Below are positions 7,874-50,169 of a DNA stretch of 64,000 bases, piece by piece. The translations under genes were made by a program, and so were the position numbers. The notes under the pieces were generated by a model. The model did not search any database, was not told the origin of the DNA, and saw nothing but the letters and a program-made list of their open reading frames with translations. This DNA comes from an uncultured delta proteobacterium (GTDB taxonomy: Bacteria > Desulfobacterota > Desulfobacteria > Desulfobacterales > SG8-13). Within the stretch, counting starts at the first letter, position 1. The number at the start of each line of letters is the position of its first letter. The stretch is taken from the NCBI GenBank assembly GCA_963779885.1, contig CAWAAN010000024.1, forward strand, positions 11,776 to 75,775, read 5' to 3'.

Positions 7874-8158
7874 TCAGGGGAAATAGACCAGCGCACTGCG
7901 GTAGCCCTCGTCCAGATCGTTCATCATTTTATCGAGGCGGCCGATCTCTTTTTCCCAGCCGGAGGCCTTATCCTTTTCGAGCTGTTTGACGAACAGCTCC
8001 AGCGTCTGAATGGTCTGTTTCAGCCCGGCCACCGTGTCCATGTACTTGGCCTGCACTTCGGGGTTGACCCCGCTGGACTTCTGCTGAAGCTCCTCGATCT
8101 TGGCTTTCCACCCCTTCAGTTGTTGTTTGAGGGCATCCATAGATTTTTCACTTGCCAT
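7874..8158 (-). CDS. small coiled-coil protein, function unknown
   Basis: 94 aa. AAAGGAGG lies 7 nt upstream of the ATG. The sequence has a heptad-like charged pattern. Confidence 0.6.
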   Translation of the reverse strand: MASEKSMDALKQQLKGWKAKIEELQQKSSGVNPEVQAKYMDTVAGLKQTIQTLELFVKQLEKDKASGWEKEIGRLDKMMNDLDEGYRSALVYFP

Positions 8159-8409
8159 GAGCGGTCCTCCTTTAAATGATGTATTGGTATCTTGGTCAAT
8201 ATTGTAAATTTTGACCGCATAATCAAGAAAAAGAAAAAGCAGCTACCACACGCCGCGCCTCCCGCCGCAACCGCCATAATGGGTTTTACCTGTTGTTATG
8301 ACCCGATTTGTTTGCGATTGCGCAAACCAACGCCGATGCTGATATTCCATTTAAGCAAACGAGGATCCGAACGGCCCTCGTGAACGCAATCAACCACAGG
8401 AGGTTTACC

Positions 8410-8547
8410 ATGGCAGAGAAAGTTCAAGATTACACTGAAAACGAGAAAGAAAAAGAGGGTCACGTCGACACCCGTCACAAGAATTTCGAATGCGAAGACA
8501 AGGACCCGAATCTGGGCTGCGACCCCGGCATCGATGTCGCCGGCTGA
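8410..8547 (+). CDS. possible 45-aa acidic peptide
   Basis: ATG at 8410 is preceded by AGGAGG. Translation is MAEKVQDYTENEKEKEGHVDTRHKNFECEDKDPNLGCDPGIDVAG. No family was recognised. Confidence 0.3.
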   Translation: MAEKVQDYTENEKEKEGHVDTRHKNFECEDKDPNLGCDPGIDVAG

Positions 8548-8588
8548 TATGACACCCTAAGTCATTTTTTAAAATTTTTCCTCCCCCC

Positions 8589-8630
8589 AAACAAACGGTC
8601 AAGCCTCAAATAGGCTCGGCCGTTTGTTTT
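8589..8630. terminator. 10-bp perfect stem hairpin (AAACAAACGG / CCGTTTGTTT), possible bidirectional terminator
   Basis: The inverted repeat was read directly. The T-run is part of and follows the 3' arm. Confidence 0.35.
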
Positions 8631-8780
8631 AGGCAATCCCTGAAAGACGCCTGCCGCACAGAAATGCGGTTTACGGCCCGGGCCTGCCGGTTGCATTCAT
8701 TGGGCTTGGCGCCGCCGCGTAATGATGCTATGCAGTCCCATTGACATGCGCTCGATTGCCGGCCAAAGGAATTTACCGCC

Positions 8781-9047
8781 ATGGGTCTCTTCGAATTTGC
8801 CATCATCTTTTCCGCGACAATTGCGCTGTATAATCTGCAGCAAATCAAGATGATCCTGAAAGACAAGGGGTTTACAGTCGATGCGTTCGCGGGCTGGATC
8901 GAGGATTACCGGCGATTCAAACGATTGATCCGGGTCGAACCCGACCGCAAGATCAAGATAAAATATCAGAAAGTCCTGAACGGGCTGCATTTTTCGCTGG
9001 CGGGCGGCGCCGCATTTGCCGTCATCGTACTGATTAACCGGCTGTAG
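8781..9047 (+). CDS. small membrane protein, unknown function
   Basis: 88 aa with two hydrophobic segments, at the N- and C-termini. It lies in a lower-GC context. An antisense ORF competes with this call. Confidence 0.45.
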   Translation: MGLFEFAIIFSATIALYNLQQIKMILKDKGFTVDAFAGWIEDYRRFKRLIRVEPDRKIKIKYQKVLNGLHFSLAGGAAFAVIVLINRL

Positions 9048-9110
9048 CCATCGCGAGCGTCATGAAAACGCCGCCCTTTTTCCAAATCTAAAAAAACCGG
9101 AGGGGGCTCG

Positions 9111-9341: not shown

Positions 9342-9431
9342 GGCAGTTCATCGGTGAAACCGATCCCGAACCTGGCATGCCGGGAGTTCGGGAGCGGCCG
9401 GGTTTCCTTCATCACGGCGAAAGGGGGGCGT

Positions 9432-12400
9432 ATGCCCAAAAGAAACGATGTCGCAAAGATTCTGATCATCGGTTCGGGGCCGATCGTCATCGGCCAGGCT
9501 TGCGAGTTCGATTATTCCGGCACCCAGGCCTGCAAGGCCCTGCGGTCCTTGGGCTACTCGGTCGTGCTGGTCAATTCCAACCCGGCCACCATCATGACCG
9601 ATCCGGACATGGCGGACGTCACCTACGTCGAGCCGCTGAACGTCAAGGTGCTGACCGAGATCATCGAACGTGAGCGCCCCGACGCCCTGTTGCCGAATCT
9701 GGGCGGGCAATCCGGACTGAATTTGGCTTCGGAACTTCACCGCCAGGGAGTCTTGGACACCTACGGCGTCAAGGTCATCGGGGTCGGCATGGATGCCATC
9801 CAGCGTGGCGAGGACCGCCTGGCGTTCAAGGAAACCATGCAGCGACTGAATATCGACATGCCGCGCAGCCAAACGGTCGAGACCATCGCGGAGGCCGAGA
9901 AGGCGGCCGAAGAACTCGGCTACCCGGTGGTGATTCGGCCGGCCTACACCATGGGCGGAACCGGCGGCGGGTTGGTGTACAACATCGAAGAGCTGCGCAC
10001 GATCGCATCCCGTGGCCTGGCGGCGAGCCTGGTCCACCAGGTGCTGGTGGAAGAATCGGTGCTGGGCTGGGAGGAACTCGAACTGGAGGTGGTCCGCGAC
10101 GCCAAAAACCAGATGATCACGGTGTGCTTCATCGAAAACGTCGATGCCATGGGCATTCACACCGGCGACAGTTTCTGCACGGCGCCCATGCTCACCATCG
10201 CACCCGAACTTCAGGAGCGCCTTCGGCAATACGCCTACGCCATCGTTGAGGCCATTCAGGTCATCGGCGGCACCAACATCCAGTTCGCCCACGATCCGGC
10301 CACCGGCCGGGTGGTGGTGATCGAGATCAACCCCCGCACGTCCCGGTCTTCCGCCCTGGCCTCCAAGGCCACCGGTTTTCCGATCGCGCGGGTGTCGTCG
10401 CTGTTGGCCGGCGGTCTGACCCTGGACGAAATCCCCTATTGGCGGGACGGATCGCTTGAAAAGTACACGCCGTCGGGCGAGTACGTCGTCGTGAAGTTCG
10501 CCCGCTGGGCCTTCGAGAAATTCGAGGGCGTAACGGACGTGCTCGGCACCCAGATGCGGGCCGTGGGCGAGGTGATGAGCATCGGCAAGACCTACAAGGA
10601 AGCCTTTCAGAAAGCCATCCGCAGCCTGGAAATCGGCCGTTACGGGCTGGGGTTCGCACGCGACTTCAATCGGATGCCGCTCGATAAACTGCTCGGCGCC
10701 CTGGGCTCCCCCAGCAGCGAACGCCATTTCCAGATGTACGAGGCGCTGCGCAAGGGAGCCGGCATCCAGGTCCTGCAGCGGATCACCCACATCAAGGCGT
10801 GGTTCATCGAACAGATGAAAGAGCTGGTGGATCTCGAGCAGGAGGTCCTGGCGCACCAGGGCCAACGGCTGCCCGACGCGTTGCTGAGACAGGCCAAGCA
10901 GGACGGGTTCGCCGACCGTTACCTGGCCGGGCTGCTCGGCTGCCGCGAGGCCGAGGTCCGCGAACAGCGGCTGGCGCTGGGCATCGCGGAGGCCTGGGAA
11001 CCGGTGCCGGTCAGCGGGGTGGATGACGCCGCTTACTACTACTCGACCTACAACGCCCCGGACCGCGTCGCGGTCAGCAGCCGGCGCAAGATCATGGTCC
11101 TGGGCGGCGGGCCGAACCGCATCGGACAGGGGATCGAATTCGACTACTGCTGCGTGCACGCCGCCCTGGCCATCCGCGAGGCCGGCTTCGAATCGATCAT
11201 GGTCAATTGCAACCCCGAAACCGTCTCGACCGATTACGACACCTCAGACAAACTCTACTTCGAGCCGCTGACGGTCGAAGACGTGCTGAGCATCCATGCC
11301 AAAGAGCGCCCCGAGGGCGTCATCGTCCAGTTCGGCGGCCAGACCCCGCTCAACATCGCCGCCGAACTCGCCGCGGCCGGCGTCACCGTTCTGGGCACTT
11401 CGCCGGACACCATCGACCTGGCCGAGGATCGCGACCGCTTTCGCCGCATCATGCGCGATCTGGGAATTCCGCAACCCGAATCGGGTATGGCCGGCAACAT
11501 CGATGAAGCCCAGGAGATCGCCCGCACCATCGGCTACCCGCTGATCGTCCGCCCGTCCTACGTGCTGGGCGGCCGCGGCATGGAGGTGGTGCTGGATGAC
11601 GGGATGCTGCAGCAGTACCTGGCCGCCGCAGTGGAGATCTCCCCCGAACGGCCGATCCTCATCGATCGCTTCCTCGACAATGCGATCGAGGCCGAGGCGG
11701 ACGCCATCGCCGACGGCCACGAAGCGTTCGTGCCGGCCGTGATGGAACACATCGAGCTGGCCGGCATCCACTCCGGCGATTCGGCCTGCGTGATTCCCCC
11801 CATCAGTATCGCCCCCCGGCATATCGAAACCATCAGCGCGTACACCCGTAAGATTGCGGTGGCGCTGGAGGTCGTCGGCCTGATGAACGTGCAGTATGCC
11901 ATCTTTGACAACACGGTCTATGTGCTCGAAGCAAACCCACGCGCCTCGCGCACCGTGCCGATCGTCTCCAAGGTCTGCGGCATTTCCATGGCCCGTCTGG
12001 CCACCCAGGTGATGCTCGGCAAGAAGCTCGCGGACCTGCATCTGGAGCGGCGCGCCATTTCCCACTACGGGGTGAAGGAAGCCGTGTTTCCGTTCAACAT
12101 GTTTCCGGAAGTCGATCCCGTCCTGGGGCCCGAGATGCGCTCGACCGGCGAAGTGCTAGGCCTGTCGCGCTCCTACGGCCGGGCTTTCTTCAAGGCCCAG
12201 GAAGCCACCCAGGTGACACTGCCCCTTGCGGGCAGCGTGCTCTTCACCATCGCCGACCGCGACAAGACCGCCGCCCTCGAGCCCATGCGGCTCTTCCGCG
12301 ACCTTGGCTTCCGCATCCTGACCACCAAGGGTACCCACGAGTTTCTGAGGCAAAAGGGCATCGAAACCGAATTGGTGCAGAAGCTGGGCTTCGGCCGGCC

Positions 12401-12638
12401 GGACCTTGTGGATGCCATCAAGAACGGTGAAATCCAGCTGCTGGTCAACACGCCGAGCGGCCGCCAGAGTTCGCACGCCAGTGCGGAGGTCCGCAAGGCC
12501 GCCATCAAGCACAAGATTTGCTACATCACGACCACCGCCGCCGCCATTGCGGCGGCCAAGGGCATCGCCGCCCGCCGCGAGGGCGCCCCCAAGGTGCGGC
12601 CGCTCCAGGAATACCACGCGAACATTCGGCAGTGTTGA
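9432..12638 (+). CDS. carB: carbamoyl-phosphate synthase large subunit
   Basis: 1068 aa counted from MPKRNDVAKILIIGSGPIVIGQACEFDYSGTQA. It has duplicated ATP-grasp halves and a C-terminal MGS-like domain. The frame is intact throughout. Confidence 0.95.
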   Translation: MPKRNDVAKILIIGSGPIVIGQACEFDYSGTQACKALRSLGYSVVLVNSNPATIMTDPDMADVTYVEPLNVKVLTEIIERERPDALLPNLGGQSGLNLASELHRQGVLDTYGVKVIGVGMDAIQRGEDRLAFKETMQRLNIDMPRSQTVETIAEAEKAAEELGYPVVIRPAYTMGGTGGGLVYNIEELRTIASRGLAASLVHQVLVEESVLGWEELELEVVRDAKNQMITVCFIENVDAMGIHTGDSFCTAPMLTIAPELQERLRQYAYAIVEAIQVIGGTNIQFAHDPATGRVVVIEINPRTSRSSALASKATGFPIARVSSLLAGGLTLDEIPYWRDGSLEKYTPSGEYVVVKFARWAFEKFEGVTDVLGTQMRAVGEVMSIGKTYKEAFQKAIRSLEIGRYGLGFARDFNRMPLDKLLGALGSPSSERHFQMYEALRKGAGIQVLQRITHIKAWFIEQMKELVDLEQEVLAHQGQRLPDALLRQAKQDGFADRYLAGLLGCREAEVREQRLALGIAEAWEPVPVSGVDDAAYYYSTYNAPDRVAVSSRRKIMVLGGGPNRIGQGIEFDYCCVHAALAIREAGFESIMVNCNPETVSTDYDTSDKLYFEPLTVEDVLSIHAKERPEGVIVQFGGQTPLNIAAELAAAGVTVLGTSPDTIDLAEDRDRFRRIMRDLGIPQPESGMAGNIDEAQEIARTIGYPLIVRPSYVLGGRGMEVVLDDGMLQQYLAAAVEISPERPILIDRFLDNAIEAEADAIADGHEAFVPAVMEHIELAGIHSGDSACVIPPISIAPRHIETISAYTRKIAVALEVVGLMNVQYAIFDNTVYVLEANPRASRTVPIVSKVCGISMARLATQVMLGKKLADLHLERRAISHYGVKEAVFPFNMFPEVDPVLGPEMRSTGEVLGLSRSYGRAFFKAQEATQVTLPLAGSVLFTIADRDKTAALEPMRLFRDLGFRILTTKGTHEFLRQKGIETELVQKLGFGRPDLVDAIKNGEIQLLVNTPSGRQSSHASAEVRKAAIKHKICYITTTAAAIAAAKGIAARREGAPKVRPLQEYHANIRQC

Positions 12639-24912: not shown

Positions 24913-25123
24913 CGGTAACGAACCCCGGCAACCCGGCTGTCTCGATTCGAGACCCGTGGCTTTCCGTCTCCCGATCACTCGGGATTTGGCACTTTCAGTG
25001 GCTGATTTCTTTTATTATTATCGGTAATTATAGCAGAGAGCCGCTCATCCGTCAATTAGGGGGCGTTGAAAAAAATGGTTATCCCGGCGGCGCGGTGACA
25101 CGCCAGAAAGGCGACCCCGATGA

Positions 25124-35931: not shown

Positions 35932-36049
35932 TCACCTTCGGGCGATCATCGTCGATTCTCTGACTTTTTTATTTAATTTGACGTTATAGAATGCGCAATT
36001 AATTATGACGCTGTGTATAGTTGTAAGCTCATACCCGATTCGCACACTC

Positions 36050-36065
36050 TGGCATTATAATCGCA
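36050..36065 (+). promoter_or_regulatory. candidate sigma-54 promoter upstream of gltB
   Basis: TGGCAT-TATAA-TCGCA, with GG and GC at consensus spacing. It lies 47 nt upstream of the gltB ATG. Confidence 0.4.
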
Positions 36066-36111
36066 GGAATCCCGTTTCCGAGCCAACAAGAAATAAATAG
36101 ACTGAAAGCGC

Positions 36112-39100
36112 ATGAAAACACGACTGCCATCCCCCCGTACCGAAAAACCGCCCCACGCCCGCCGTGGTCTCTACGACCCGCGCTTCGAGCACGACGCCTG
36201 CGGCATCGGCCTGATCTGCGGCATCAAGGGCCGCCAGTCGCACGCCATCATCCGTGCCGGTTTGAAAATTTAGAAAACTTCAGCCATCGCGGGGCCTGCG
36301 GGTGCGACGAGACCACCGGCGACGGGGCGAGCATCCTGATACAGATGCCGCATGAATTCCTGCGTAACGGCTGCGAGTCCATCGGCGTGGCGCTGCCGGC
36401 GCAAGATCACTATGGCTGCGGCCTGGTTTTCCTGCCACCGGACGACGCCCAGCGGCGCTGGTGCGTCCGGCGGTTCGAGGAGGTTATCCGTCAGGAGGGC
36501 CAGCGGTTTCTGGGATGGCGCCGCACGCCGGTCGACAGCACCGCCCTGGGCCTGCTGGCGCGGCAGCGGGAACCGGTCATCCGCCAGGTTTTTATCGGCC
36601 GCGGGCCGGACATAACCGATACAGCCCATTTCGAGCGCAAGCTGTTCGTCATCCGCAAGGTGATGGAACGCCGCGTGCGCGAATCGGACCTGAGCCAGGC
36701 CTCTTTTTTCATGTCCCCAGCCTCTCCTGCCGCACCCTGGTATACAAGGGCATGCTTCTGGCCGACCAGGTCCAGGCCTATTTCCCCGACCTGGGCCACC
36801 CGGAGATGGTCAGCGCCCTAGCGCTGCGTCCACCAGCGCTACAGCACCAATACCTTTCCGACCTGGGAGCTGGCACACCCGTTTCGCTTCCTGTGCCACA
36901 ACGGCGAGATCAACACACTGCGCGGCAATGTCAACTGGATGCAATGCCCGCCAGTCTCTCTTCGAATCGGCTCTTTTCGGCCGACGATATGGCCAAACTG
37001 TTTCCGGTGGCCACCCCCGGTGCCAGCGATTCGGCCGTCTTCGACAACGCGGTCGAACTGCTGTACCACACCGGACGCTCGCCTGCCGCACGCCATCATG
37101 ATGATGATTCCGGAAGCCTGGCAGAACCATCGAGACAATGAGCGATGACCAAGAAGGCCTTTTATGAATATCACGCCTGCCTGATGGAGCCCTGGGACGG
37201 ACCGGCGGCCATTGCCTTCACCGACGGGACGGTGCGTCGGCGCGGTGCTCGACCGCAACGGCCTGCGCCCGTCGCGCTACACGGTCACCACCGATGACCG
37301 GGTCATCATGGCCTCGGAAACCGGCGTTCTGCCGGTGGCCGCCGGAATTGGTGCGGCACAAGGGGCGCCTGCAGCCCGGGCCGCATGTTCCTGATCGACA
37401 CGGAAAAGGGGCGATTGTCGAGGACGAAGAAATCAAGGACGGAAATCGCGGCCGCCGCCCGTACCGCGCCTGGATAGAGCAGAACCTGGTCGGCCCTCGA
37501 CCACCTGGCCCCGCCGGAGGACGGGCCGGCAGCGGAAGCCCTGCCCCTGGCGGTCCGCCAGCTGGTCTTCGGCGTCAGCGCCGAAGACTTGCGGCATGAT
37601 CCTGGTCCCGATGGCCCGCACCGCCAGCGAGCCGGTCGGCTCGATGGGCGACGACATCCCGCCGGCCATATTGTCTCTTCAGCCCCGCCTTTTATATGAC
37701 TATTTCAAGCAGCTGTTCGCCCAGGTGACCAACCCGCCGCTGGATGCGATCCGGGAGGAGCTGGTGACCTCGCCTGAGAACCACCATCGGCGCGGAAGGC
37801 AAGACCTTTTCAGGAAACGCCCCGGCACTGCCGCCAGCTCCTGCTGACCGGCCCGATTCTGACCGACGCGCGTCTGGCACAGCTGCGCAGGCTCGACCAG
37901 GCCGATCTGCGCGCGGCCGTGCTGCCGATTCTCTTTCCGATCCCAGACGGCTGCCGCGGCCTCGAACAGGCGCTGGGCGACCTGGGCCGCGCCGCGGTCC
38001 GCGCCGTTACCAACGGCGCCACCCTTCTGATCCTCACCGACCGCGGGACCGATGAGCGCCTGGCACCGATCCCGGCCCTGCTGGCCACGGCCGGCCTCCA
38101 CCACCACCTGATCCGGGAAGGCCTGCGCACCCGCTGCGGCCTGGTGGTCGAAACCGGCGAAGCCCGCGAGATCCACCACTGTCTGCTGCCTGCTCGGCTA
38201 CGGCGCCGGGGCCGTCAACCCGTACCTGGCGCTGGAGACCCTGGGGCAAATGGCAGCCGGCGGGGACCTGGCCGAACTGCGACGCGCAAACCGCCGCCGC
38301 CAATTACGTCGAAGGCCGTGGAAAAGGGCATTCTCAAGGTGATGTCCAAGATGGGCATCTCGACCCTGCAGAGCTACCGCGGCGCCCAGATCTTCGAGTG
38401 TGTCGGCCTCGAGCTGAATCCTTCGTCGAGCGCTATTTTACCGGCACCTCCTCCCGGATCGGCGGCGCCGGCCTCGGATCTGATCGCCGAAGAAGTCGGC
38501 CGGCGACACCGTCACGCCGCATTCGTCACGGATCCGATACGGACGCGCCACGGCTGGAAATCGGCGGCAAGTACAAATGGCGCCGCAACGGTGAAGCACC
38601 ACCAGTACACGCCGCTGACCATCGCCAAGCTGCAGCAGGCGGTGCGCGGTGACGACGGCTACGAGCCTGGGCAAGGAATATCAGCGCCCTGGTCGACGAC
38701 CAGAACCGACGCGAAGGCCTCATCCGCGGGTCTGTTCGAACTGCGAGTCCGGCAATGCGCCGGTTCCCCTCGACGAGGTCGAGCCCGTGGACGGATATCG
38801 TCAAGCGATTCAAAACCGGCGCCATGTCCTATGGCTCGATCAGCCAGGAAGCCCACGAGACGCTGGCGATCGCCATGAACCGCATCGGCGGCAGGAGCAA
38901 CTAGCGGCGAGGGCGGCGAGAACCTGGACCGCTACCGGCCCGATGACAACGGCGACTGGCGCAACAGCGCCGATCAAGCAGGTGGCCTCCGGCCGCTTCG
39001 GCGTCACGGGCGACTACCTGGCCAACGCCGAGGACCTGCAGATCAAGATGGCCCAGGGGGCCAAGCCGGGCGAGGGCGGGCAGCTGCCCGGCATTCAAGG

Positions 39101-40728
39101 TCTATCCCTGGATCGCCAGGATCCGCCACTCGACCCCGGATGTCGGCCTGATATCGCCGCCGCCGCACCACGACATCTATTCGATCGAGGATTTGGCCCA
39201 GCTCATACACGATCTGAAAAACGCCAACCCGCGCGCGCGCATCAACGTCAAGCTGGTTTCGGAAGTGGGCGTCGGAACGGTGGCGGCCGGCGTCGCCAAG
39301 GGCAAGGCCGATGTGATCCTGATCAGCGGCGAGACGGGCGGGACCGGCGCCTCGCCGCAGGGCTCGCATCCGTCATGCCGGCTTACCCTGGGAGCTGGGC
39401 CTGGCCGAGGCGCAGCAGACGCTGCTGCTGAACGGTCTGCGCAGCCGGGTCGGTGCTGGAGACGCGACGGCCAGCTGAAGACCGGCCGCGACGTGGCCAT
39501 CGCCGCCCTGCTGGGCGCCGAGGAATTCGGCTTCGCCACGGTCGCCGCTGATCGCCCTTGGCTGCATCATGATGCGCGTCTGCCACCTGAATACCTGCCC
39601 GGTCGGCATCGCCACCCAGGACCCGCGAGCTGCGCAAGAAGTTCGCCGGCAAGCCCGAGCATGTCGATCAACTTGATGCGCTTTATCGCCGAGGAACTGC
39701 GCGCGATAATGGCCGAGCTCGGCTACCGGCACCTGGACGAGATGGTCGGCCGGGTCGAGCATGCTGAACGGTCGCAGCGGCTATCGATCACTGGAAAGCC
39801 CGGGGCCTCGATTTTTCCAGCGATCCTCTACCAGCCCGGAGCAGCCGCCGGAGATGCGCCGCCACCTGCCGAGTGCGGAACAGGACCACGGGCTCGAGAA
39901 GGCCCTGGACCACGGCCTGATTCGTAAACTGCCGTCCAGCGCTTGAAACACGGCACGCGCGTGGAACTGGAGCTGCCGATCCGCAACGTTAACCGCACCG
40001 TCGGCACGCATGCTCGGCTAGCGAAATCTCCCGCCGCTACGGGGACAGAAGGCCTGCCCGAAGACACCATCGTCATTCGCGCTCGCCGGCAGCGCCGGAC
40101 AGAGTTTCGGCGCCTTCGTGCGCGGCCGGGCATGACCATCCATCTTGAGCGGCGATGCCAACGATTACTTCGGCAAGGGGCTCTCCGGCGGCCAGGCTGA
40201 TCGTCAGCCCGCCCGCCGGCAGCCGCTTTGCGGCCGGAGGAAAACATCATCATCGGCAACGTCGCCCTCTACGGCGCAACCGCCGGCGAGGCCTACATCC
40301 GCGGTGTGGCCGGCGAACGCTTCGGCGTGCGCAACAGCGGCGCCCGGGCCGTGGTGGAAGGCGTCGGCGACCACGGCTGCGAATACATGACCGGCGGACG
40401 GGTCGTGGTGCTGGGGCCCACCGGCCGCAACTTCGCCGCCGGCATGAGCGGCGGGATCGCCTATGTTCTCGACGACGCAGGGGATTTTTCGCTTTTGCGC
40501 TGCAACCCGGAAATGGTCGCACTGGAAGCCGTCTCTACCGGCGACCAACCGGAGCTGCGCAACCTGATCGAAAACCACTATAGATACACCCACAGCAAGG
40601 TCGCCGAAAGGATCTTGACCCACTGGGACGAGACCCTTCCCCGTTTCGTCAAGGTCATCCCGGTCGACTACAAACGCGCGCTGCGGGAATCGGCCGCCGA
40701 ACAAGACCCCACTCCCCCGGCCGGCTGA
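36112..40728 (+). pseudogene. gltB: glutamate synthase large subunit, disrupted by many frameshifts
   Basis: GltB segments are recognisable in all three forward frames. Examples are FEHDACGIG (Ntn Cys), HRGACG..TGDG, LSCRTLVYKGML, VHQRYSTNTFPTWELAHPF and CHNGEINTLRGN. Further examples are [29 protein letters not shown] and GILKVMSKMGISTLQSYRGAQIFE, plus the C-terminal [12 protein letters not shown] traced at least 10 frame switches between 36271 and 37400. Confidence 0.85.
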
Positions 40729-40737
40729 ACCAAACGG

Positions 40738-40803
40738 GTGCAAACCGGCTCAACGGGCTCAACCGGCTCAACGACCAACGGACACAACGGACACAACGGA
40801 GAA
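40738..40803 (+). repeat. 9-nt-periodic tandem array filling the gltB-gltD spacer
   Basis: GGCTCAACG GGCTCAACC GGCTCAACG ACCAACGG ACACAACGG ACACAACGG AGAACAC, followed by the ATG. The gltD ribosome-binding site GGAG is part of the last unit. Confidence 0.7.
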
Positions 40804-40806
40804 CAC

Positions 40807-42270
<1,464 letters not shown>

Positions 42271-42445
42271 AGCGCCGGGTTTTCTTTCGGGTGTATTTAT
42301 GGCATACTATTTAGCGGGGCGTGTCTTTAAAACAACGAAGTCGACGCTCGGCAGTCAAAGAGCGCCCGCTTTGTCGATTCCTGAAAAAAATAATCAATAA
42401 ACCAGGCGGTATCGACGCGGCCGGTGCCGGAAAGGAGACGGAAAG

Positions 42446-42709
42446 TTGACCGAAACGTGGCAAAATGATCTCAACTGCGCCTTGGCGTGCACGCGCTGCA
42501 ATGAAGCCCTGAAGGCCGATGATCGTCGGATTCTGTCGGTTTACGACCATCAACCGATCTGCATGGACTGCAAGAAGAATGAAGAAGAACGGGCCGACTA
42601 TGCCCAGGTGTCGCAGCACATGATCGGGACCTGCATGGCCGAAACCGAACGCCAGTACAGCGATCCGGGCGGATACTGCTTTTATCACTTCTACCCTTTT
42701 AAATGCTGA
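42446..42709 (+). CDS. small cysteine-rich protein, unknown function
   Basis: 87 aa. TTG start follows GGAAAGGAGA. Contains CxxxCxxC and CxxC pairs. Confidence 0.5.
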   Translation: MTETWQNDLNCALACTRCNEALKADDRRILSVYDHQPICMDCKKNEEERADYAQVSQHMIGTCMAETERQYSDPGGYCFYHFYPFKC

Positions 42710-42820
42710 GCGGCCGCCGGTGTCGATGCCCGATGACAGCCGGTGCGCGGCACGGCGGGTGTTTCGCGCGCTGATGTTCCCCGCTTTCGGGCAAAAGACC
42801 CCAACCGTCAAGGAATTTGA

Positions 42821-44134
42821 ATGAGAAAAAAAACGACCCCGGCCAGGGCCGGGAGTGCTTCGCCGTCTGCGGCAAACAGGCCCGTCGACGAACTCGAGCG
42901 GGCCGTCGAGGCCCTTCACGTCAGTGAGGAGAAGTACCGCACGGTCATCGAAAACATCGAAGACGGGTACTACGAAGTCGACTTGTCCGGCAATTTCACT
43001 TTTTTCAACCACGCCATGGCCCGTATCACCGGTTTTGCCAGCAACGAACTGCTGGGGATGAACAACCGGGACATGATGGACAAGTTCAACACCACCCAGG
43101 TGTTTCAGGTTTTCAACCAGGTCTACCAAACCGGTCTGGCCACCAGGGCCTTTGATTGGCAGCTGATCCGCAAGGACGGCTCCCGGCGTGTCCTGGAAGT
43201 GTCGATCAGCTTGAAGAAGTCGATCTCCGGCGAACCGGTCGGTTTCATGGGCATCGCGCGCGATGTCACGCAGCGCAAGTTGATGGAGCAGGCCCTGCGG
43301 GACAGCGAAGAAAAATACCGCATGATCATCGAGAACATCGAAGACGGGTACTATGAAGTCGACTTGTCCGGCAATTTCACTTTTTTCAACGAGGCCCTCG
43401 CCCGCATCACCGGCTACAGACGCACGGAACTGCTGGGCAAGAACAACCGCGCCATCATGGACTCATTCAACGCCAAGCGTGTCATGGCCCTTTTCAGCGG
43501 CGTTTACAACACCGGCCTGGCGACCAAGGCCTTCGATTGGGAACTGATCCGCAAAGACGGCGCCAAGCGCTACGTCGAGGTGTCGGTCTCACTGAAACGC
43601 GATCTGAAGGGTCATCCGGTGGGTTTCATGGGCATCGCACGGGACATCACTGAGCGCCGGGAAACCGAAGAACTGCTGCGCCGCAGCGAAGAGAAATTGC
43701 GCGGCAAGACCCGCAACCTCGAGGAAGTCAACACGGCGCTGACGGTTCTGTTAAAAAAACGCGAGGACGACAAGCGCGACCTCGAGCAGACCGTGCTGAC
43801 CAATCTGAACGACATGGTCAAGCCCTACCTGGAGAGGGTCAAGGCCCGCGCCAGTGACACCCGGCAAAAAAACAACCTGGCGGTCCTGGAAGAAAACCTC
43901 AACGCGATTACCTCGCCCTTTTCCTATCGCCTCTCTTCCCGTTATCTGAACCTGACGTCATCTGAAATCGAAATCGCCAACCTCGTCAAGCAGGGAAAAA
44001 GCACCAAGGACATTGCCGACCTGCTGAGCGTCTCCGGCAAGACGATCGAGGTCCATCGCCTCAACATCCGCAAGAAACTGGGGTTGAGCAATAAAAAGGC
44101 CGGTTTGAGAACCCACCTGATGTCGGTTCGCTGA
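42821..44134 (+). CDS. PAS-PAS-LuxR(GerE) transcriptional regulator
   Basis: Two 127-codon PAS units, a coiled-coil linker and a C-terminal LTSSEIEIANLVKQGKSTKDIADLLSVSGKTIEVHRLNIRKKLG helix-turn-helix. Confidence 0.85.
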   Translation: MRKKTTPARAGSASPSAANRPVDELERAVEALHVSEEKYRTVIENIEDGYYEVDLSGNFTFFNHAMARITGFASNELLGMNNRDMMDKFNTTQVFQVFNQVYQTGLATRAFDWQLIRKDGSRRVLEVSISLKKSISGEPVGFMGIARDVTQRKLMEQALRDSEEKYRMIIENIEDGYYEVDLSGNFTFFNEALARITGYRRTELLGKNNRAIMDSFNAKRVMALFSGVYNTGLATKAFDWELIRKDGAKRYVEVSVSLKRDLKGHPVGFMGIARDITERRETEELLRRSEEKLRGKTRNLEEVNTALTVLLKKREDDKRDLEQTVLTNLNDMVKPYLERVKARASDTRQKNNLAVLEENLNAITSPFSYRLSSRYLNLTSSEIEIANLVKQGKSTKDIADLLSVSGKTIEVHRLNIRKKLGLSNKKAGLRTHLMSVR

Positions 44135-44164
44135 AGAGCCGCCGGACAACAATGGAAACCTGAC

Positions 44165-44345
44165 ACTCGAAACTTGAAACTCAAAGTCATTTGCTCAAAG
44201 GATTTTTCGAAAGTCCCCCTTTGAAAAAGGGGGATATAGGGGGATTTTAAGTGGTCATAAAAAATCCCCCCGGCCCCCCTTTTCCAAAGGGGGGAAGTAT
44301 TAAGCCTTAAGTTTAAGTTAATGGCATGGACTCGAAACTTGAAAC
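44165..44345. mobile_element. MITE-like insert flanked by 16-nt direct repeats
   Basis: ACTCGAAACTTGAAAC occurs at 44165-44180 and 44330-44345. The interior has the G/C-run hairpins TCCCCCTTTGAAAAAGGGGGA and CCCCCCTTTTCCAAAGGGGGG. Confidence 0.45.
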
Positions 44346-44461
44346 CCAGAACCCTCACCCTGACCCACAGCCGGTGACGGCGTCTGCGTGCCTGGTGGGG
44401 CCACTTCGCGCCGTAAGCCGCGTGGATAAAAAGACCGAAACTTTGTTGGGTTTCGTTTGAC

Positions 44462-45385
44462 TTAACCCGACCTTGATTTGAACCCGCCGCGGTCGAAAGC
44501 CAGACGGGCAGCGGCCAGGTCGAACATGGCGTGTCCGACGCTCTTGAAGATCACCGGTCCGCCGTCCGGCCGCTGTTTTGTGATCGCTTCTTCCAGCGGT
44601 CTGACCCGCTCCCAGTCAATCCCGGCCTGTATGAAATCACCGCCCTCGGCCCGAACGCCCTCCAGCGTATCGGCAAAAAGCCGGCCGCGGCGTACCCACT
44701 CGACCGGCAGTTCGGCCATTGAGGCGGTGAATGCGCCGACGGCCGCCACGAAGGCATCCGGTCGCAGCACCCCGCCGAGGACTGGTGAAACGCTGCTGGT
44801 GGCTGTCACGATGAGGGTCACGTCCTTGAGGACCGTTTCCGGACAGTCGATGACCTTGACCCGCACACCGCGTGCCTGCGCCAGGCACGCCAGTTTTTCG
44901 GCTTTGGCACGGGTTCGCGAGGCGATGAACAGCTGTCTGACGCCCAAAACCTCGCTGAAAGCCTCCACGTGCGCGCGGGCTTGAGTACCGGCCCCCACGA
45001 TGAGCAGCGGTCCCGCGGGATCGGGCGCCAGTCGACCGGCCGCCAAGGCGCTAACGGCCGCCGTGCGTCGGGCCGTCACCGTTATCCCGTCCAGAATTCC
45101 CAGTCGCCGGCCGCTGGCAGCCTCCATGACGATGACTTCGCCCTGGATGGCCGGCAGGCTTTCGTTCCGGTTCTCCGGATGAACGGTGACAAGCTTCGTG
45201 ATGGCGATCTCCCCGTCCGAGGCGGGCATCAACAAAAGACTTCCCCCGGCGGCAATCGACACCACCATCCGCTCCGGCGCGACTATCCGGCCGGCCCGGT
45301 GCGCCTGGAGCGTGTCGGCCAGGATATCGCAAAGAGCCGGATACGGCAGCGACTGCCGGGTCTGGGCGGCGTTGAAAATTTTCAT
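44462..45385 (-). CDS. ornithine cyclodeaminase / mu-crystallin family protein
   Basis: About 307 aa counted from MKIFNAAQTR. NAD motif LLIVGAGTQA. Confidence 0.85.
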   Translation of the reverse strand: MKIFNAAQTRQSLPYPALCDILADTLQAHRAGRIVAPERMVVSIAAGGSLLLMPASDGEIAITKLVTVHPENRNESLPAIQGEVIVMEAASGRRLGILDGITVTARRTAAVSALAAGRLAPDPAGPLLIVGAGTQARAHVEAFSEVLGVRQLFIASRTRAKAEKLACLAQARGVRVKVIDCPETVLKDVTLIVTATSSVSPVLGGVLRPDAFVAAVGAFTASMAELPVEWVRRGRLFADTLEGVRAEGGDFIQAGIDWERVRPLEEAITKQRPDGGPVIFKSVGHAMFDLAAARLAFDRGGFKSRSG

Positions 45386-45494
45386 AAAACCGGCGGATGG
45401 ATCCATCGGCGCTCTCTCCTTGTTACCGGTTGGCTGTAAACGACTCGCATAAAGTCAACGCCAGCATTCACATGGGCACCGAGAACATTGGTCC

Positions 45495-45521
45495 TTGACA
45501 TGCGGGTGAATAAAGTATAAA
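45495..45521 (+). promoter_or_regulatory. candidate sigma-70 promoter for the PilZ gene
   Basis: TTGACA (45495-45500), then a 15-nt spacer and TATAAA (45516-45521). Alternatively a 17-nt spacer and TAAAAA. The spacing is suboptimal. Confidence 0.3.
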
Positions 45522-45609
45522 AATATCAATTGATTGTCTGTTAGCAGCTTCGATCCCAACCTTTACAATAGTCCGGCCGCGGCCACTTGATTTGAGCGAA
45601 AATTGCATC

Positions 45610-45969
45610 ATGTCAGACACGGATAAACGAAAGCATCCGCGCGTGCAGACCCACAATGTGGTGTCCTATATCTGTCTCGACGCCGATGGACGGCAGATCG
45701 CCGAGGGGATGGGAACCACGGTCGACATCAGCCAGGGCGGCACCCTGCTTGAAACCAGTTGTCCGATCGATGCCGAATACATTCTGCTGATGTCGATCGA
45801 TCTGGACAACAACATGGTCGAAACCAAGGGCAAAGTCGCCCATTCACGGTTGGTGGCGCCTGGGAAATATTTGACCGGCATTCAGTTTCTCGGCGAGCGC
45901 GAAGAAGTCACGCGCGTCGTCAAGAACTTCATCATCGACTATCACAGCCGTAAGAACAAAAGCCGTTAG
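45610..45969 (+). CDS. single-domain PilZ protein (paralogue of 24312-24716)
   Basis: KRKHPRV and DISQGGTLLE motifs. The architecture matches the other PilZ: ...NNMVETKGKVAHSR... versus ...NNLIEIVGKVIFSR... Confidence 0.8.
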   Translation: MSDTDKRKHPRVQTHNVVSYICLDADGRQIAEGMGTTVDISQGGTLLETSCPIDAEYILLMSIDLDNNMVETKGKVAHSRLVAPGKYLTGIQFLGEREEVTRVVKNFIIDYHSRKNKSR

Positions 45970-46047
45970 CCGCGGACACCGGGCCGCCGCTCAAGGCCCG
46001 GATTGCGGACGGGTTGAACCGGTGGCTGTCATCGGAAGGATGTGACC

Positions 46048-46653
46048 ATGCTCAAACGATCATTTACCGTCATGGCGCTTTTTTTCGTGCTGCAGGTGCC
46101 GGCGTCGGCCGACCGGGTATTTGTCTGGACGGACGCCAAGGGCGTCAAGCATTTCAGCAATACCGGCCCATCGGAGGCGACCGTCTCCTTTGAGCAGAAA
46201 GAGGAACTGACACCCGCCGCGAACCCGGGCGGCCAGCCCGCCCGACATCGGTCCGGACCGGTGCCGCAGCCAGGCGCCGACAGCGAGCCGGCGGCCGCCG
46301 CCGAACCGCCACCCGCCGACACCGAAACGGACCCGGATGCCGAGTATCTCGAGGCCACCCGCCTCGATCTGGCCCTCTTTCCGATGCCGCAGGGCGAAAT
46401 CGTTCGGCGCGAAAAATCGATCATGGGTGATTTGCAGGACGAGCTGCGCCAGGGCGGCAACCGGCAGCAGATCATCGATCGCGAAAAAAAACGCCTGGCA
46501 CTCGCCGTTCAGGATTTGGACGCCGCACCGCTTGATAAATTCGGCTCACAGAAGAACAAGCGCCGGCAGGTGGGCTATTTCAAGTACCGCCTGGAAAAAT
46601 TGCTCTCCGATCCGGATGGCTACTTCGCCTATCCCGAGTCGGAATCCGATTGA
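46048..46653 (+). CDS. secreted DUF4124-like protein
   Basis: Signal peptide, then VFVWTDAKGVKHFSNTGP, which is the DUF4124 signature as I recall it. A Pro/Ala-rich linker follows. Confidence 0.6.
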   Translation: MLKRSFTVMALFFVLQVPASADRVFVWTDAKGVKHFSNTGPSEATVSFEQKEELTPAANPGGQPARHRSGPVPQPGADSEPAAAAEPPPADTETDPDAEYLEATRLDLALFPMPQGEIVRREKSIMGDLQDELRQGGNRQQIIDREKKRLALAVQDLDAAPLDKFGSQKNKRRQVGYFKYRLEKLLSDPDGYFAYPESESD

Positions 46654-46810
46654 CGACCGGCGACCAGCCGAAACATTAAATCGCTTTCATCCGCCAACCC
46701 TGAACCTATAACCCTAACCTTATCTGTGCCGAGCACCCGTCCGGAATCTTTTTAAGGTCACCGATCAGCTCTCATGCTGTTTATGCCACTTTGGGGATGC
46801 CCCACGCCCC

Positions 46811-47821
46811 TCACGGCCGCGGGATCTCCCGCAGCACCGATTCGATTCTCACCGGGGCCGGCACCAGGCCCTGGGTCACCATAATCTGTTCGGTTTGCTT
46901 CCAGGCCGCCGTATCGATCGTACCGATCGGAATGGCCGGGTCGGGCTGCACCAGGCTCCGGGTGACCGCCAGCTCCTCTCGCAGGACACCCTGCGAGGAG
47001 TCCTTATCATAGCGGCGCAATGTTTCCAGGGCCCGGTCGGCATTGGCCGGCTCCAGCGCCGACCGCCAGCCCTTCAGCAGGGCCGTGGTGAACTTGCGCA
47101 CGGTTTGCGGATCGCGCGCGATCATTTTTCCGGATGTCACCAGAGAGTTGGCCACAAACCGCACGCCGTAGTCGGCCGGGTTGAAAAAGGCGAAGGCATC
47201 ACCGGAACCGCGCAGCTTCTCCGCCAGAAACACGGCCTGGGTGTTGCGGTAAACGGGCCAGAAATTGACGGCTTTCTGGATGAACGGCGTGTAGTCGTAG
47301 CGCACGCTGTAGAGCGTCACGTCGGCTTCGGTAAGCCCCGCCCGGGCCAGCAGGGTCTTTAAGATGGTTTCGTCGTTACCGCCGAAGGTCACGCCCAGCA
47401 CCCGGCCTTTCAAATCCGAGAGGCCGGCGATTTTGATCTGGTCCGGCCGGTAGATCCACTGCAGCGGATTGACCTGAAAAAATTGGGCGAGAACGACGAC
47501 ATCGACCCCTTTCGACAGGGCCCGGATCACCTGATCGGCGGACGCCACGCCGAATTGCGCCCGCCCCAGCTCGATTTCCCGCAGGGCGTCGCGCTCCGGT
47601 CCGCCTTCCCTGATCTCGACCTCAAGCCCTTCGGCCGCGAAAAACCGGTGGGCCTCGGCGTAGAGATCGCCCACGACACTGGTGTTGAAGAGCCATTTGA
47701 GCCGGTAGACGATCGTATCGTCGGACGCGTCCTTCCTGCCGCAGCCGGCGCCGACAAAAAGGATCAGGACCAAAACGGCCAACCGCAGGCCTTCACAGTG
47801 TTTGTTTCCGATTCCCGGCAT
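46811..47821 (-). CDS. ABC transporter substrate-binding lipoprotein (NMT1/THI5-SsuA/TauA-like)
   Basis: Lipobox LFVGAGC. Periplasmic-binding fold with typical length and segments. It is the last gene of the ABC operon. Confidence 0.8.
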   Translation of the reverse strand: MPGIGNKHCEGLRLAVLVLILFVGAGCGRKDASDDTIVYRLKWLFNTSVVGDLYAEAHRFFAAEGLEVEIREGGPERDALREIELGRAQFGVASADQVIRALSKGVDVVVLAQFFQVNPLQWIYRPDQIKIAGLSDLKGRVLGVTFGGNDETILKTLLARAGLTEADVTLYSVRYDYTPFIQKAVNFWPVYRNTQAVFLAEKLRGSGDAFAFFNPADYGVRFVANSLVTSGKMIARDPQTVRKFTTALLKGWRSALEPANADRALETLRRYDKDSSQGVLREELAVTRSLVQPDPAIPIGTIDTAAWKQTEQIMVTQGLVPAPVRIESVLREIPRP

Positions 47822-47851
47822 CGATAATCCTATAACCCTGTGTAGCCGCCA

Positions 47852-47887
47852 GTTTGTAGGGGCACGGCGCGCCGTGCCCCTACAAAC
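47852..47887. repeat. perfect 36-nt palindrome GTTTGTAGGGGCACGGCG|CGCCGTGCCCCTACAAAC
   Basis: The exact reverse-complement symmetry was read directly. It occupies most of the permease-SBP intercistronic gap. Confidence 0.9.
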
Positions 47888-47890
47888 GAC

Positions 47891-48643
47891 CTATTTCCCG
47901 CTCCACACCCGGCGGATGGCGGCCCCGCAGAGTTCCAGAAAGCCCTGGTAGACCGACAGCGTAATGCCGATGAGAAAAAGGGCCACCAGGATTTTGGCCA
48001 GATTGCTCTGGTAGAGCGCCACCCGGATGCTGTAGCCGATACCGGCATTGGCGGCGATGAACTCGGCCACGATAGTGCCGGCCATTGCCAAGGTAGCGCT
48101 TCCGGCGATCACCGTCGTCAGTTTGTTCAGATTTTCGAAGGCGCGGATCTTGACTTCCAGCTGCCAGCGCAGGCGCCCTGTCACCCGGTAGAAATGCTCG
48201 ATGTCCTCGACCGGCTCGGCCATGATGCCGATTACCGAGAGCAGCACCGGAAAATAGCAGATCATGGCCGCAATCAACAGCCGGGTCAGCAATCCGTCAC
48301 CTAACAGAATAAAGATGATCGGCGCAATGGCCACGATCGGATAGGCCTGGACGTTATAGGCCGCCACCTTGATGAACGAGCCGAACCAGGTCGCCTGCCG
48401 ACCGGCGATCCCCACCAGCAGGGCAATGAATATCGCCATCACCTGCCCCACGACCGCCACCGCCAGCGTGTTCAGGACATCGCCGAAATAGCGCCCGAAC
48501 TGCGCAATGCCGGTGTGCCAGATGTCGACCGGTCCGGGAATCACGTAGTCGGACAAACCCAGGCCGTATTTGATCAGGAGCAGAAAGGCGAGCCCGATGG
48601 CATAGATGATCAGAAACTGGTAGATGCGCCTATGAAGAAGCAT
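47891..48643 (-). CDS. ABC transporter permease (SsuC/TauC-like)
   Basis: 250 aa with six transmembrane segments and an EAA-like loop region. Confidence 0.85.
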   Translation of the reverse strand: MLLHRRIYQFLIIYAIGLAFLLLIKYGLGLSDYVIPGPVDIWHTGIAQFGRYFGDVLNTLAVAVVGQVMAIFIALLVGIAGRQATWFGSFIKVAAYNVQAYPIVAIAPIIFILLGDGLLTRLLIAAMICYFPVLLSVIGIMAEPVEDIEHFYRVTGRLRWQLEVKIRAFENLNKLTTVIAGSATLAMAGTIVAEFIAANAGIGYSIRVALYQSNLAKILVALFLIGITLSVYQGFLELCGAAIRRVWSGK

Positions 48644-49325
48644 TGACGATCTCCAGCATGCTCTGATCGAGCCGGCTCCGGTCGATCTCGCGCCCGATCC
48701 GGGCGTCCTGCCCGCGCACGACCACCGACTGCGGGTGGCGCTCCGCCCCTCTCAAAACGACGATATCGCGGCAGAACTTCGACACCTCGACCACATTGTG
48801 GGAGATGTAGAGAAAATGGCGCCGGGGATAAAGGGCCTTGACCTGCAAAATGATCTTCTCGCGGGTCAGCTCGTCGACATTGGCCAGGCTCTCGTCCATG
48901 ATCAGCAGATCGAAGTCCTGCAGGAGATAGCGCAGCAGATTGACGCGGTTCTGCTGCCCCAGGGACAACTGGGAAAACCGCTGCCGCAAGCAGTCTTCCA
49001 AGCCGAAAACCGGCACCAGGTCCTGAAGGTGGTCCCGGCGGCCGGCGGGGGTGACCTTCTCCAGGTGTCGGCCGACCGCCGACCAGCCCGGAAGCCGCTC
49101 GGTGTTGTAGGAATAGAGAAAGGTCTTCATCCCCGCCTGGTTGATGTCCCCGGAGAAACCGCGCATGTCGCCGGTCAGGATTCTGGCCAGCGAGGTCTTG
49201 CCGACGCCCGAGGGGCCGAAAAGGGAGTTGAAGCCGGGTTCCGTCAATTCGAAGGACAGATCCCGGAAGACGAAATTCGGGGAACCGGGATATCTGAGGG
49301 TCAGGTTTCGGATCTGCAGGCCCAT
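48630..49325 (-). CDS. ABC transporter ATP-binding protein
   Basis: Walker A GPSGVGKTS, signature LSLGQQ and Walker B LLIMDE. Confidence 0.9.
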   Translation of the reverse strand: MGLQIRNLTLRYPGSPNFVFRDLSFELTEPGFNSLFGPSGVGKTSLARILTGDMRGFSGDINQAGMKTFLYSYNTERLPGWSAVGRHLEKVTPAGRRDHLQDLVPVFGLEDCLRQRFSQLSLGQQNRVNLLRYLLQDFDLLIMDESLANVDELTREKIILQVKALYPRRHFLYISHNVVEVSKFCRDIVVLRGAERHPQSVVVRGQDARIGREIDRSRLDQSMLEIVNASS

Positions 49326-49347
49326 TGACGCGCTTTCACCGGCGGTT

Positions 49348-50169
49348 CTACTGCATGCGGTCCGCCGGCGCCAGCCATCGCGCCAGCCTGTTCTTCAGGC
49401 TGCCCAGGAGCGGTTCGCGGATTTTGACCTCTAGGTAAAGGTCACCGGGCGGCTCCCCGCCCTTGCCGTCGTGACCCATGCCGGCCAGGCGGATTTTTTG
49501 CCCCGAGTGAATGCCCGGCGGTATCTTCACCACCAACTTTTTCGATTTTTCACGCACAAAATAGGCGTAGGGGCCGCCGGTTCGGGCCAGTTCGGGGTCG
49601 AGGAAAATGGTATCGCGCACGGGCCCGCCCTTTTCCGGCAACTCGACGCCGCTGATATTTTTCAACAGCCGGCGCGCGAGCGTGCCGAGCACCCCGCCTT
49701 GCGGCAGCGCCGGGCCCGGCCGGGTGCCGGCGCCGCCGGAACCGGTGAAGACAAACCCGCGGGCGAACATTCCGGGCCGGTTGAACTGGAAACTGCGGAA
49801 CCCCGGGCCGTAAAACTCCTTGAAGATGTCCTCCACCCCCCGCACGCCGAAAGAGCGGGCCATCTCTTCGAAGACCTGGTAGACGTCCGAGCCCCTGAAA
49901 ATATCACGGTCACTGTAGCTCTGCCGGAAGCGGCTGTGGGCGGTGTCCCCGAACCGCTGCCGCAGGCCGTCATATTCGCGCCGCTTGTTGGCGTCGGCCA
50001 GCACGGCATAGGCTTCGTTGAGCCGCTTCATCTGTTCCGCCGCTTGCGGATTGTCCGGATGGCGGTCGGGATGGAACTGGTAGGCCAGCTTGCGATAGGC
50101 CTCTTTTATTTCGCGCGCCGTGGCGGTGTCGCCAACGCCCAGAAGGCGGTAATAGTCGCTGGTCGGCAT
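49348..50169 (-). CDS. DnaJ-domain protein (canonical HPD) with a DnaJ C-terminal-like region
   Basis: DYYRLLGV...AYRKLAYQFHPDRHPDNP...LNEAYAVLAD..KRREYD. Confidence 0.85.
   Translation of the reverse strand: MPTSDYYRLLGVGDTATAREIKEAYRKLAYQFHPDRHPDNPQAAEQMKRLNEAYAVLADANKRREYDGLRQRFGDTAHSRFRQSYSDRDIFRGSDVYQVFEEMARSFGVRGVEDIFKEFYGPGFRSFQFNRPGMFARGFVFTGSGGAGTRPGPALPQGGVLGTLARRLLKNISGVELPEKGGPVRDTIFLDPELARTGGPYAYFVREKSKKLVVKIPPGIHSGQKIRLAGMGHDGKGGEPPGDLYLEVKIREPLLGSLKNRLARWLAPADRMQ

Follow-up and report, generated by a model that had tools for sequence, protein, structure and literature searches.

In the 64,000-nt stretch of DNA analysed here (the window), the gene for the glutamate synthase large subunit, gltB, is written as many short reading frames between intact neighbors, which raises the question whether the bacterium carries a decaying gene or the assembly carries errors. 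According to the ORF listing, no open frame within gltB exceeds 319 aa. The neighboring genes carB (9354–12638, 1094 aa) and gltD (40738–42270) each form a single ORF, and the flanks are clean over at least 30 kb. An earlier note on this sequence had described gltB as frame-broken with carB and gltD intact, and both the ORF listing and a frameshift-aware alignment bear this out. Because tblastn with an intact GltB reads through stops and cannot place shifts, it was replaced by frameshift-aware protein-to-DNA dynamic programming with our own code, using about 60 intact GltB sequences as references and then the closest relative (P0121), whose identity to the intact gltB allele is 87%. Reference GltB sequences were obtained by a GltD scan of GTDB genomes, in which no close genome was found (best match 68% identical). 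The longest gltB fragment as protein query returned only short, distant fragments. An open-frame scan of the whole window was not discriminating at 60% GC, and near-identical contigs were compared over 25–55 kb instead.

The alignment to P0121 yielded 51 frame changes (39 of +1, 7 of +2, and 5 of −1), with the fragments covering GltB residues 16–1522 in kept order and with 84% identity inside the fragments. Overall, gltB contains about 51–55 frame changes, i.e. one per about 65–80 nt. The earlier note was thus right about the breakage and too sparing with the spacing of 100–150 nt, as a nucleotide alignment to an intact contig (L081, see below) placed 55 indel events in the interval 36300–40300, with a mean spacing of 65 nt. 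All five frame switches that it gave as examples hold: a T is missing near 36268, a run of T7 appears as T6 at 36703, and extra bases occur at 36826, 36941, 36984, and 37081. It had also let the pattern continue to the C-terminal GXGXG domain; breaks do occur until 40236, but the final 490 nt of gltB are clean. Its wording of indels without much substitution decay agrees with the high identity inside the fragments, yet about 48 window-only substitutions lie in the same tract.

The underlying gene is readily recovered. Stripping the extra bases gave a stop-free protein 97% identical to that of L081, and the indel-stripped translation contained GATase_2 (PF00310, 27–420 of 420), Glu_syn_central (PF04898), Glu_synthase (PF01645), and GXGXG (PF01493) in this order, each matched over almost its whole length (E-values 1e-84 to 1e-169). 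This is the four-domain order (GATase_2, central, FMN/Glu_synthase, GXGXG) of NADPH-dependent GltB/GltD, with an alpha subunit as in Azospirillum brasilense GltS. The N-terminal catalytic Cys of the Ntn amidotransferase, found in bacterial GltB in the context '...FEHDACGIG', is present as well: the first fragment (36112–36273) reads ...RFEHDACGIGLICGIKG, and this motif aligns with the same motif in the short-read contig L090 and the reference proteins. As in other bacteria, gltD follows directly downstream; its product carries Fer4_20 and Pyr_redox_2 domains, and the gltB-gltD adjacency is kept in L081 and in two sister species (L092 and L093). Identity of the window's GltB to Desulfobacterales GltB amounts to 84–87%. 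The population has an ordinary gltBD operon for an NADPH-type glutamate synthase, whose large and small subunits measure about 1515 aa and 487 aa. In functional terms nothing sets it apart from the known bacterial enzymes; only the written sequence of the window is corrupted. The host population, an uncultured member of the Desulfobacterales, comes from metagenomes of soil and freshwater sediment.

The intact allele is provided by L081 (with L084 and L089; ENA contig_68625), an independent long-read contig from the same Desulfobacterales population, which has gltB in one frame of 1467 codons, plus gltD, and itself shows two −1 shifts within the first 50 gltB codons. In the flanks, L081 and the window are about 99.9% identical: the 10.8 kb upstream contain 10 mismatches and 1 gap, and downstream the two differ at only a few positions. 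Between 36055 and 40363, they differ by 55 indel events and about 106 substitutions, compared with about 12 substitutions and 3 indels in 17 kb outside. Relative to L081, the patch holds 52 extra single bases, 4 multi-base insertions (GG at 37798, CG at 38410, TA at 38660, and AAG at 38673), 4 deletions (36703, 37413, 37806, and 39876), and the window-only substitutions mentioned above; its final indel lies at 40236 and its final window-only substitution at 40363. At sites conserved in the two sister species, 48 substitutions were derived in the window versus 16 in L081. The features of the locus are listed in Table 1.

Table 1. Features of the gltBD locus, in window positions, and the evidence on which each is based.
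Feature	Position	Strand	Evidence and remarks
AT-rich stretch upstream of gltB, 103 nt	35948–36050	no strand	Shared by window and short-read contig L090; absent from L081 and L082
Noisy patch compared with the intact allele	36068–40363	no strand	MAFFT alignment of window and L081; substitutions polarised with L092 and L093; changes contradicted by short-read contigs
gltB, glutamate synthase large subunit, as written in the window	36112–40728	+	Many short frames (ORF list; frameshift-aware alignments)
Segment of 5751 nt deleted in the dominant strain, from about codon 80 of gltB through most of gltD	36351–42101	no strand	Joint 36350->42102 in runs X1–X3; MAG contigs
Tandem repeat with 9-nt unit in the gltB-gltD spacer	40733–40800	no strand	Length differs between haplotypes
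gltD, glutamate synthase small subunit, 487 aa	40807–42270	+	Intact; only 3 SNP-like changes compared with L081

Short reads allowed the two versions of the gene to be judged. We used Illumina contigs of four metagenomes holding this population, marked by contigs of 151 nt and Nextera adapter tails. Every covered indel site of the window was contradicted by these contigs, whose reads derive from the same population and study, though not provably from the window's sample, and support for any window indel was found in none of the four metagenomes. At 35 directly listed sites, the contigs lacked the extra base or contained the missing one; for other contigs within 39981–40461, the gap counts (9, 7, and 5) equaled the number of sites spanned. 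Contigs such as those covering 36538–36905 and 37363–37650 had 0 substitutions and gaps exactly at the indel sites, and the L081 allele was matched by 22 of 32 short-read substitution differences. With identical settings, a control flank of equal size (42500–50000) showed 5 indel places compared with 76 in the patch region and contigs of up to 2460 nt with zero differences; in gltD, the short-read contigs had 0 gaps. Look-up of 31-mers in public runs gave the same picture, as in runs X1–X4 a share of 0.54–0.78 was found for gltD and downstream sequence (40738–44200) versus only 0.12–0.21 for gltB. Patch-specific 31-mers occurred in none of the indexed public runs. For the densest stretch (39750–40245), the best indexed run had at most 2 of 49 words, and only 4% of its words were common to L081. 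An intact gene both in short reads and in another assembly makes a local assembly error almost certain, rather than a pseudogene. Of the explanations put forward in the earlier note, a locally low-quality patch in the assembly is thus supported by the contradicted sites and the open frame of L081, and the frameshifts of gltB are very probably consensus errors within an assembled patch of 4.2 kb, not mutations of the bacterium.

The locus also varies between coexisting strains. The joint 36350->42102 occurs at dominant depth in runs X1–X3 and is carried by the NCBI MAG contigs L082, L083, and L091; a look-up with carB yielded short-read MAG contigs of the deletion strain and nothing else. The deletion junction falls within a 5-nt direct repeat, CATGA (36351–36355 and 42102–42106), and the loss of gltB'-gltD in the dominant strain is a microhomology-mediated deletion and a real presence/absence polymorphism. 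Several gltB haplotypes coexist alongside the gltBD-deletion haplotype. Because of both the deletion in the dominant strain and this coexistence, the gltB-bearing haplotype is a minority, with a depth of about 3–7x compared with 10–26x in the flanks. The AT-rich stretch ahead of gltB reflects genuine variation between strains rather than an error, as it is shared with L090.

With the deletion haplotype, gltBD is evidently dispensable in the population, and the window does carry real variants of its own nearby, such as the 103-nt stretch. Both would be in line with a true pseudogene of very recent origin, belonging to a strain outside the short-read sampling, which took up about 55 indels and about 50 substitutions after gltBD became dispensable. 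We consider this very unlikely. A change of about 2.5% within 4.2 kb next to flanks with at most 0.1% and an untouched gltD would need hypermutation targeted at one gene. Reads of otherwise identical sequence contradict every covered site, and the absence of window-specific sequence from all indexed runs speaks against the recent indel-biased pseudogene that the earlier note had proposed. Also, insertions exceeded deletions about 14:1 (56 insertion events versus 4 deletions in 36300–40300), and this excess of +1 insertions outside homopolymers is opposite to the well-known deletion bias of bacterial pseudogenes, which Mira, Ochman and Moran are said to have reported in 2001. With about equal substitution counts (transitions to transversions 52:54), the patch does not display the neutral bacterial decay spectrum of deletion bias and transition bias. 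Pseudogenes of host-restricted bacteria such as Mycobacterium leprae and Sodalis likewise combine many frame breaks with recognisable homology, but they are genome-wide, deletion-biased, and confirmed by reads, whereas here a single gene is affected, insertions dominate, and reads contradict them. The more specific case, in which the window represents a rare strain whose gltB alone was hit by localised insertion-biased hypermutation (about 55 single-base insertions, mostly outside homopolymers, and about 50 substitutions) with gltD and flanks untouched, has a slimmer chance still; if true, such hypermutation would act on a gene that the population is discarding.

The arrangement of the indels bears on a further alternative, namely that gltB is expressed despite the frame changes by programmed recoding, transcript editing, or translational bypassing. 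Only the kept order and high similarity of the fragments would fit this. The spacing of the indels is random (CV 0.98), the 55 sites share no common motif and have heterogeneous contexts, and the near-identical and sister genomes encode the same GltB in one plain frame. We know of no bacterial recoding system with such a density of sites, and the probability of this explanation is negligible.

More weight has to be given to a mixed-haplotype consensus, likewise an artefact, in which reads of two or more diverged gltB haplotypes were collapsed onto one backbone and both alleles of SNPs were kept, giving +1 insertions. Here the patch coincides with the haplotype-divergent tract 36055–40300 and not with the whole low-depth segment, and several haplotypes as well as relatives of 88–92% identity are present together at a depth that is the same or higher. 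Most indels are insertions, and the inserted base hardly ever repeats the one beside it: it was unlike both neighbors in 46 of 52 cases, versus about 52% expected by chance, and extended a run in only 6 of 52. Of the 29 inserted bases in the first 2.7 kb, 25 would be synonymous alternatives of the adjacent codon base. Positions 36939–36942 read ATGC in the window, and L081 has CTC there. Over the whole gene, however, synonymous-like cases (29 of 47, 62%) did not differ significantly from the null of 49%, with only 4 of 18 in the late part, and a codon-phase bias was absent (counts of 14/21/12, chi-square about 2.9). The implied SNPs are mostly transversions, unlike real SNPs, and the implied alternative alleles never appeared in short-read contigs at the examined sites. 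Moreover, the window-only alleles mostly match neither sister sequence (L092, L093), and 63 of 89 sites follow L081 rather than the window. We regard this explanation as rather unlikely. As to the collapsed paralogue suggested in the earlier note, no second gltB copy was seen, but the coexisting haplotypes would permit a contribution of strain mixture to the bad consensus. Cross-mapped reads of the 88%-identical sister species were discarded as a source of the window alleles because of the same mismatch to both relatives.

A poorly polished long-read or gap-fill patch remains the best reading. The random spacing of the indels, their lack of codon-phase bias, and the threefold excess of derived substitutions over L081 look like noise. 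Read support is locally poor because the deletion joint holds the dominant depth and exact-match contigs within gltBD have a depth of only 2–7. In this tract, the assembler or polisher may thus have met with too little read support or with reads that disagreed, and a long-read path or gap-fill might never have been polished effectively, which would leave noise resembling raw reads, while sequence common to all haplotypes would have been polished to near perfection. Sereika et al. link low coverage to the residual indels and broken-up genes of metagenome assemblies built from long reads or hybrid data. The window resembles such errors in that a gene is split into short ORFs with ordered homology and the indels are absent from the short reads of the population. 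It differs in that the errors lie in one 4.2-kb patch of a near-perfect contig, consist mainly of insertions, and for the most part do not fall in homopolymers. The profile, with about 1.4% insertions, 0.1% deletions, and about 1% substitutions, is unusual and atypical of common long-read errors. Typical Nanopore residual errors are homopolymer deletions, and the homopolymer association expected of Nanopore or 454-type errors is missing among the patch indels: to the earlier question whether the indels sit in homopolymers, the answer is that only about three events do; two or three deletions lie in T or A runs. Furthermore, gltD and the 490 nt at the end of gltB are error-free despite lying in the same low-depth presence/absence segment, and low coverage alone does not account for the boundaries of the patch.

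This locus illustrates that, where strains vary and depth is low, an otherwise near-perfect metagenome contig can conceal 4 kb of sequence with an error rate of about 2.5%. An automated annotation pipeline would miscall the patch as a pseudogene, implying loss of GOGAT. For the organism, the frame breakage has little biological weight, since the gltBD operon is ordinary. The gltBD deletion polymorphism, by contrast, is real and modestly interesting biology: with gltB'-gltD present in some coexisting strains and absent from others, nitrogen assimilation via this GOGAT differs among strains.

In the window, gltB is broken by repeated changes of reading frame and its longest open frame has at most 319 aa according to the ORF listing, which, like the earlier note, found carB and gltD unbroken. 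As plain tblastn was unable to place the shifts, a protein-to-DNA aligner with frameshift states was written and used with a reference set of about 60 intact GltB proteins, taken from loci fetched together with GltD. Aligned in this way, the complete protein is recovered from the window in its proper order, with 43-49 switches of frame. Against P0121 ("MAG: Desulfobacterales bacterium"), the closest named relative with 87% identity to the intact allele described below, 51 changes were placed (39 of +1, 7 of +2 and 5 of -1), with 84% identity within fragments. All frame switches cited as examples in the earlier note are real; their density is higher than the suggested one per 100-150 nt, and the breaks do not run on to the C-terminal end, the final 490 nt of gltB being clean.

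Features of the locus and of other parts of the window
Feature	Position	Strand	Remarks
carB	9354-12638		one ORF
gltB	36112-40728	+	broken frame
gltD	40738-42270		one ORF
Deleted segment	36351-42101		starts at about codon 80 of gltB, ends 168 nt short of the gltD stop
AT-rich stretch	35948-36050		103 nt, 5′ of gltB; in the window and L090, absent from L081 and L082
Tandem repeat in gltB-gltD spacer	40733-40800		9-nt unit (CTCAACGGA-like)
Tandem duplication in PAS/LuxR-type regulator	42935-43638		internal, 381 nt, in ORF 42821-44134; two PAS modules, 76% identity
c-di-GMP-I-GGC riboswitch aptamer	24923-24999	-	Rfam RF03167, 63 bits (gathering score 59)
Low-GC stretch	7674-9091		~1.4 kb, 5′ of carB, GC 0.50-0.56, no long open frame; no tRNA or Rfam match found

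Near-identical contigs were retrieved by exact-protein look-ups using the neighbouring genes. ENA ERZ25039549 contig_68625 (407 kb; loci L081, L084, L089) agrees with the window in gene order and has a gltB ORF of 1467 codons, with a gltD of 487 codons behind it. Of four NCBI MAG contigs, one (L090, short-read) ends within gltB, its first 225 codons intact. Compared with the ENA contig, the window has 10 mismatches and one gap in the 10.8 kb upstream and only a handful of changes 3′ of 40400. Between 36055 and 40363, it carries 52 additional single bases, four additional runs of 2-3 nt and about 106 substitutions; four bases are absent (36703, 37413, 37806, 39876), the main patch spanning 36300-40300. 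In the leader and first 250 nt of gltB (36068-36300), where all haplotypes differ, there are a few more small indels. Removal of the additional bases yields a stop-free protein with 97% identity to the ENA allele and full-length matches to all four glutamate-synthase domains. L081 itself has two -1 shifts at 3482-3497 (about 36250-36270 in the window; gltB codons ~40-50, one in an A-run), which split off a 51-aa ORF with the catalytic Cys; because the short-read L090 is intact there, they are probably a further minor error of the consensus.

The same population is present in four metagenome runs (X1-X4), all from one study, of soil and freshwater sediment. Their contigs are Illumina-derived, many being exactly 151 nt long, with Nextera adapter in loose ends. 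Their 31-mer content was 0.54-0.78 for gltD plus downstream sequence (40738-44200) versus 0.12-0.21 for gltB. Short-read contigs at 36538-36905, 37363-37650 and 38427-38580 showed no substitution relative to the window and two, six and three gaps, respectively, all at indel sites, and more divergent contigs at 39981-40461 had as many gaps as sites spanned (9, 7 and 5). Altogether, 35 indel sites were explicitly marked as left out or put in, and none of the X1-X4 contigs supported any window indel. Where short reads differed at the window's own substitutions, 22 of 32 had exactly the ENA allele. An equally long control stretch (42500-50000), analyzed with identical settings, contained five indel places compared with 76 in the patch region, and contigs of up to 2460 nt match it without any difference. 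The densest stretch (39750-40245) has only 4% of 31-mers in common with the ENA allele, and at most 2 of 49 sampled words occurred in any indexed run. On these reads of the same population, the frameshifts are very probably absent from the organism's DNA, and a genuine, bizarrely insertion-riddled allele is hardly credible. The earlier suggestion of a locally low-quality patch is thus supported by the open frame of the ENA contig and by the short reads contradicting the indels.

The changes themselves were also analyzed. Spacing of the indels is random (CV 0.98), without codon-phase preference (14/21/12). Insertions outnumber deletions about 14 to 1, 46 of 52 inserted bases are unlike both neighbours (about 52% expected by chance), and transitions and transversions are about equally numerous, a profile that is odd for usual long-read errors. 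At sites conserved in the syntenic sister genomes L092 (88% identity) and L093 (81%), 48 derived substitutions were counted in the window versus 16 in the ENA contig, and gltD shows three SNP-like changes only, the window allele being ancestral or synonymous at each. This pattern is that of noise over one tract, not of selection or decay. In L093 (GCA_041298825.1), the more distant relative, the gltD call is split into two ORFs (275 and 203 aa; 7632-9096), possibly by a frameshift or an assembly error there.

Compared with bacterial NADPH-type gltB, the gene is ordinary in architecture, catalytic Cys and adjacency to gltD. The recent pseudogene considered before was not borne out, as its lesions lack support in independent DNA reads, and the insertion-dominated spectrum is opposite to that of genuine bacterial pseudogenes, which are biased towards deletions. 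Programmed recoding was excluded, since motifs are not shared among the sites and relatives have plain ORFs. The phenomenon falls among the indel errors that remain in metagenome assemblies of the long-read or hybrid type and that reportedly give rise to frameshifted gene calls (proovframe preprint).

As to its origin, the assembler may have had few or conflicting reads for the gltB tract, and a poorly polished path or gap-fill would have been left in the window. Exact-match contigs had depths of 2-7 inside gltBD versus 7-26 in the flanks; however, low depth alone leaves the clean gltD of the same segment unexplained. Insertions could also result if, at strain SNPs, the two alleles were retained next to each other; of the 29 bases inserted in the first 2.7 kb, 25 would then be synonymous alternatives. 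Over all sites, however, this holds for 29 of 47 (null 0.49), the implied SNPs would be mostly transversions, and for the most part the alleles of the window agree with neither of the sister species. In published work (PMC9262707), coverage is linked to the quality of the consensus, and microdiversity to the fragmentation of MAGs. The locus varies between strains: short-read MAG contigs break within gltB, and at least four differing haplotypes exist in its leader and first 250 nt. The spacer repeat differs in length among the window, L081 and short-read contigs.

From the contigs compared, the AT-rich stretch is a real haplotype difference and not an error. In the sister species L092, an AAA_14/DUF4143 gene has been inserted at this intergenic position, which therefore looks like an insertion hot spot. 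In the dominant strain, 5751 nt are deleted and 36350 is joined to 42102 within a 5-nt direct repeat (CATGA). The joint occurs at dominant depth in three runs (X1-X3) and also in three NCBI MAG contigs (L082, L083, L091), which are without gltB'-gltD. Strains that occur together thus differ in whether they have this GOGAT; the presence or absence of gltBD is a genuine structural polymorphism and the sole real biology of note.
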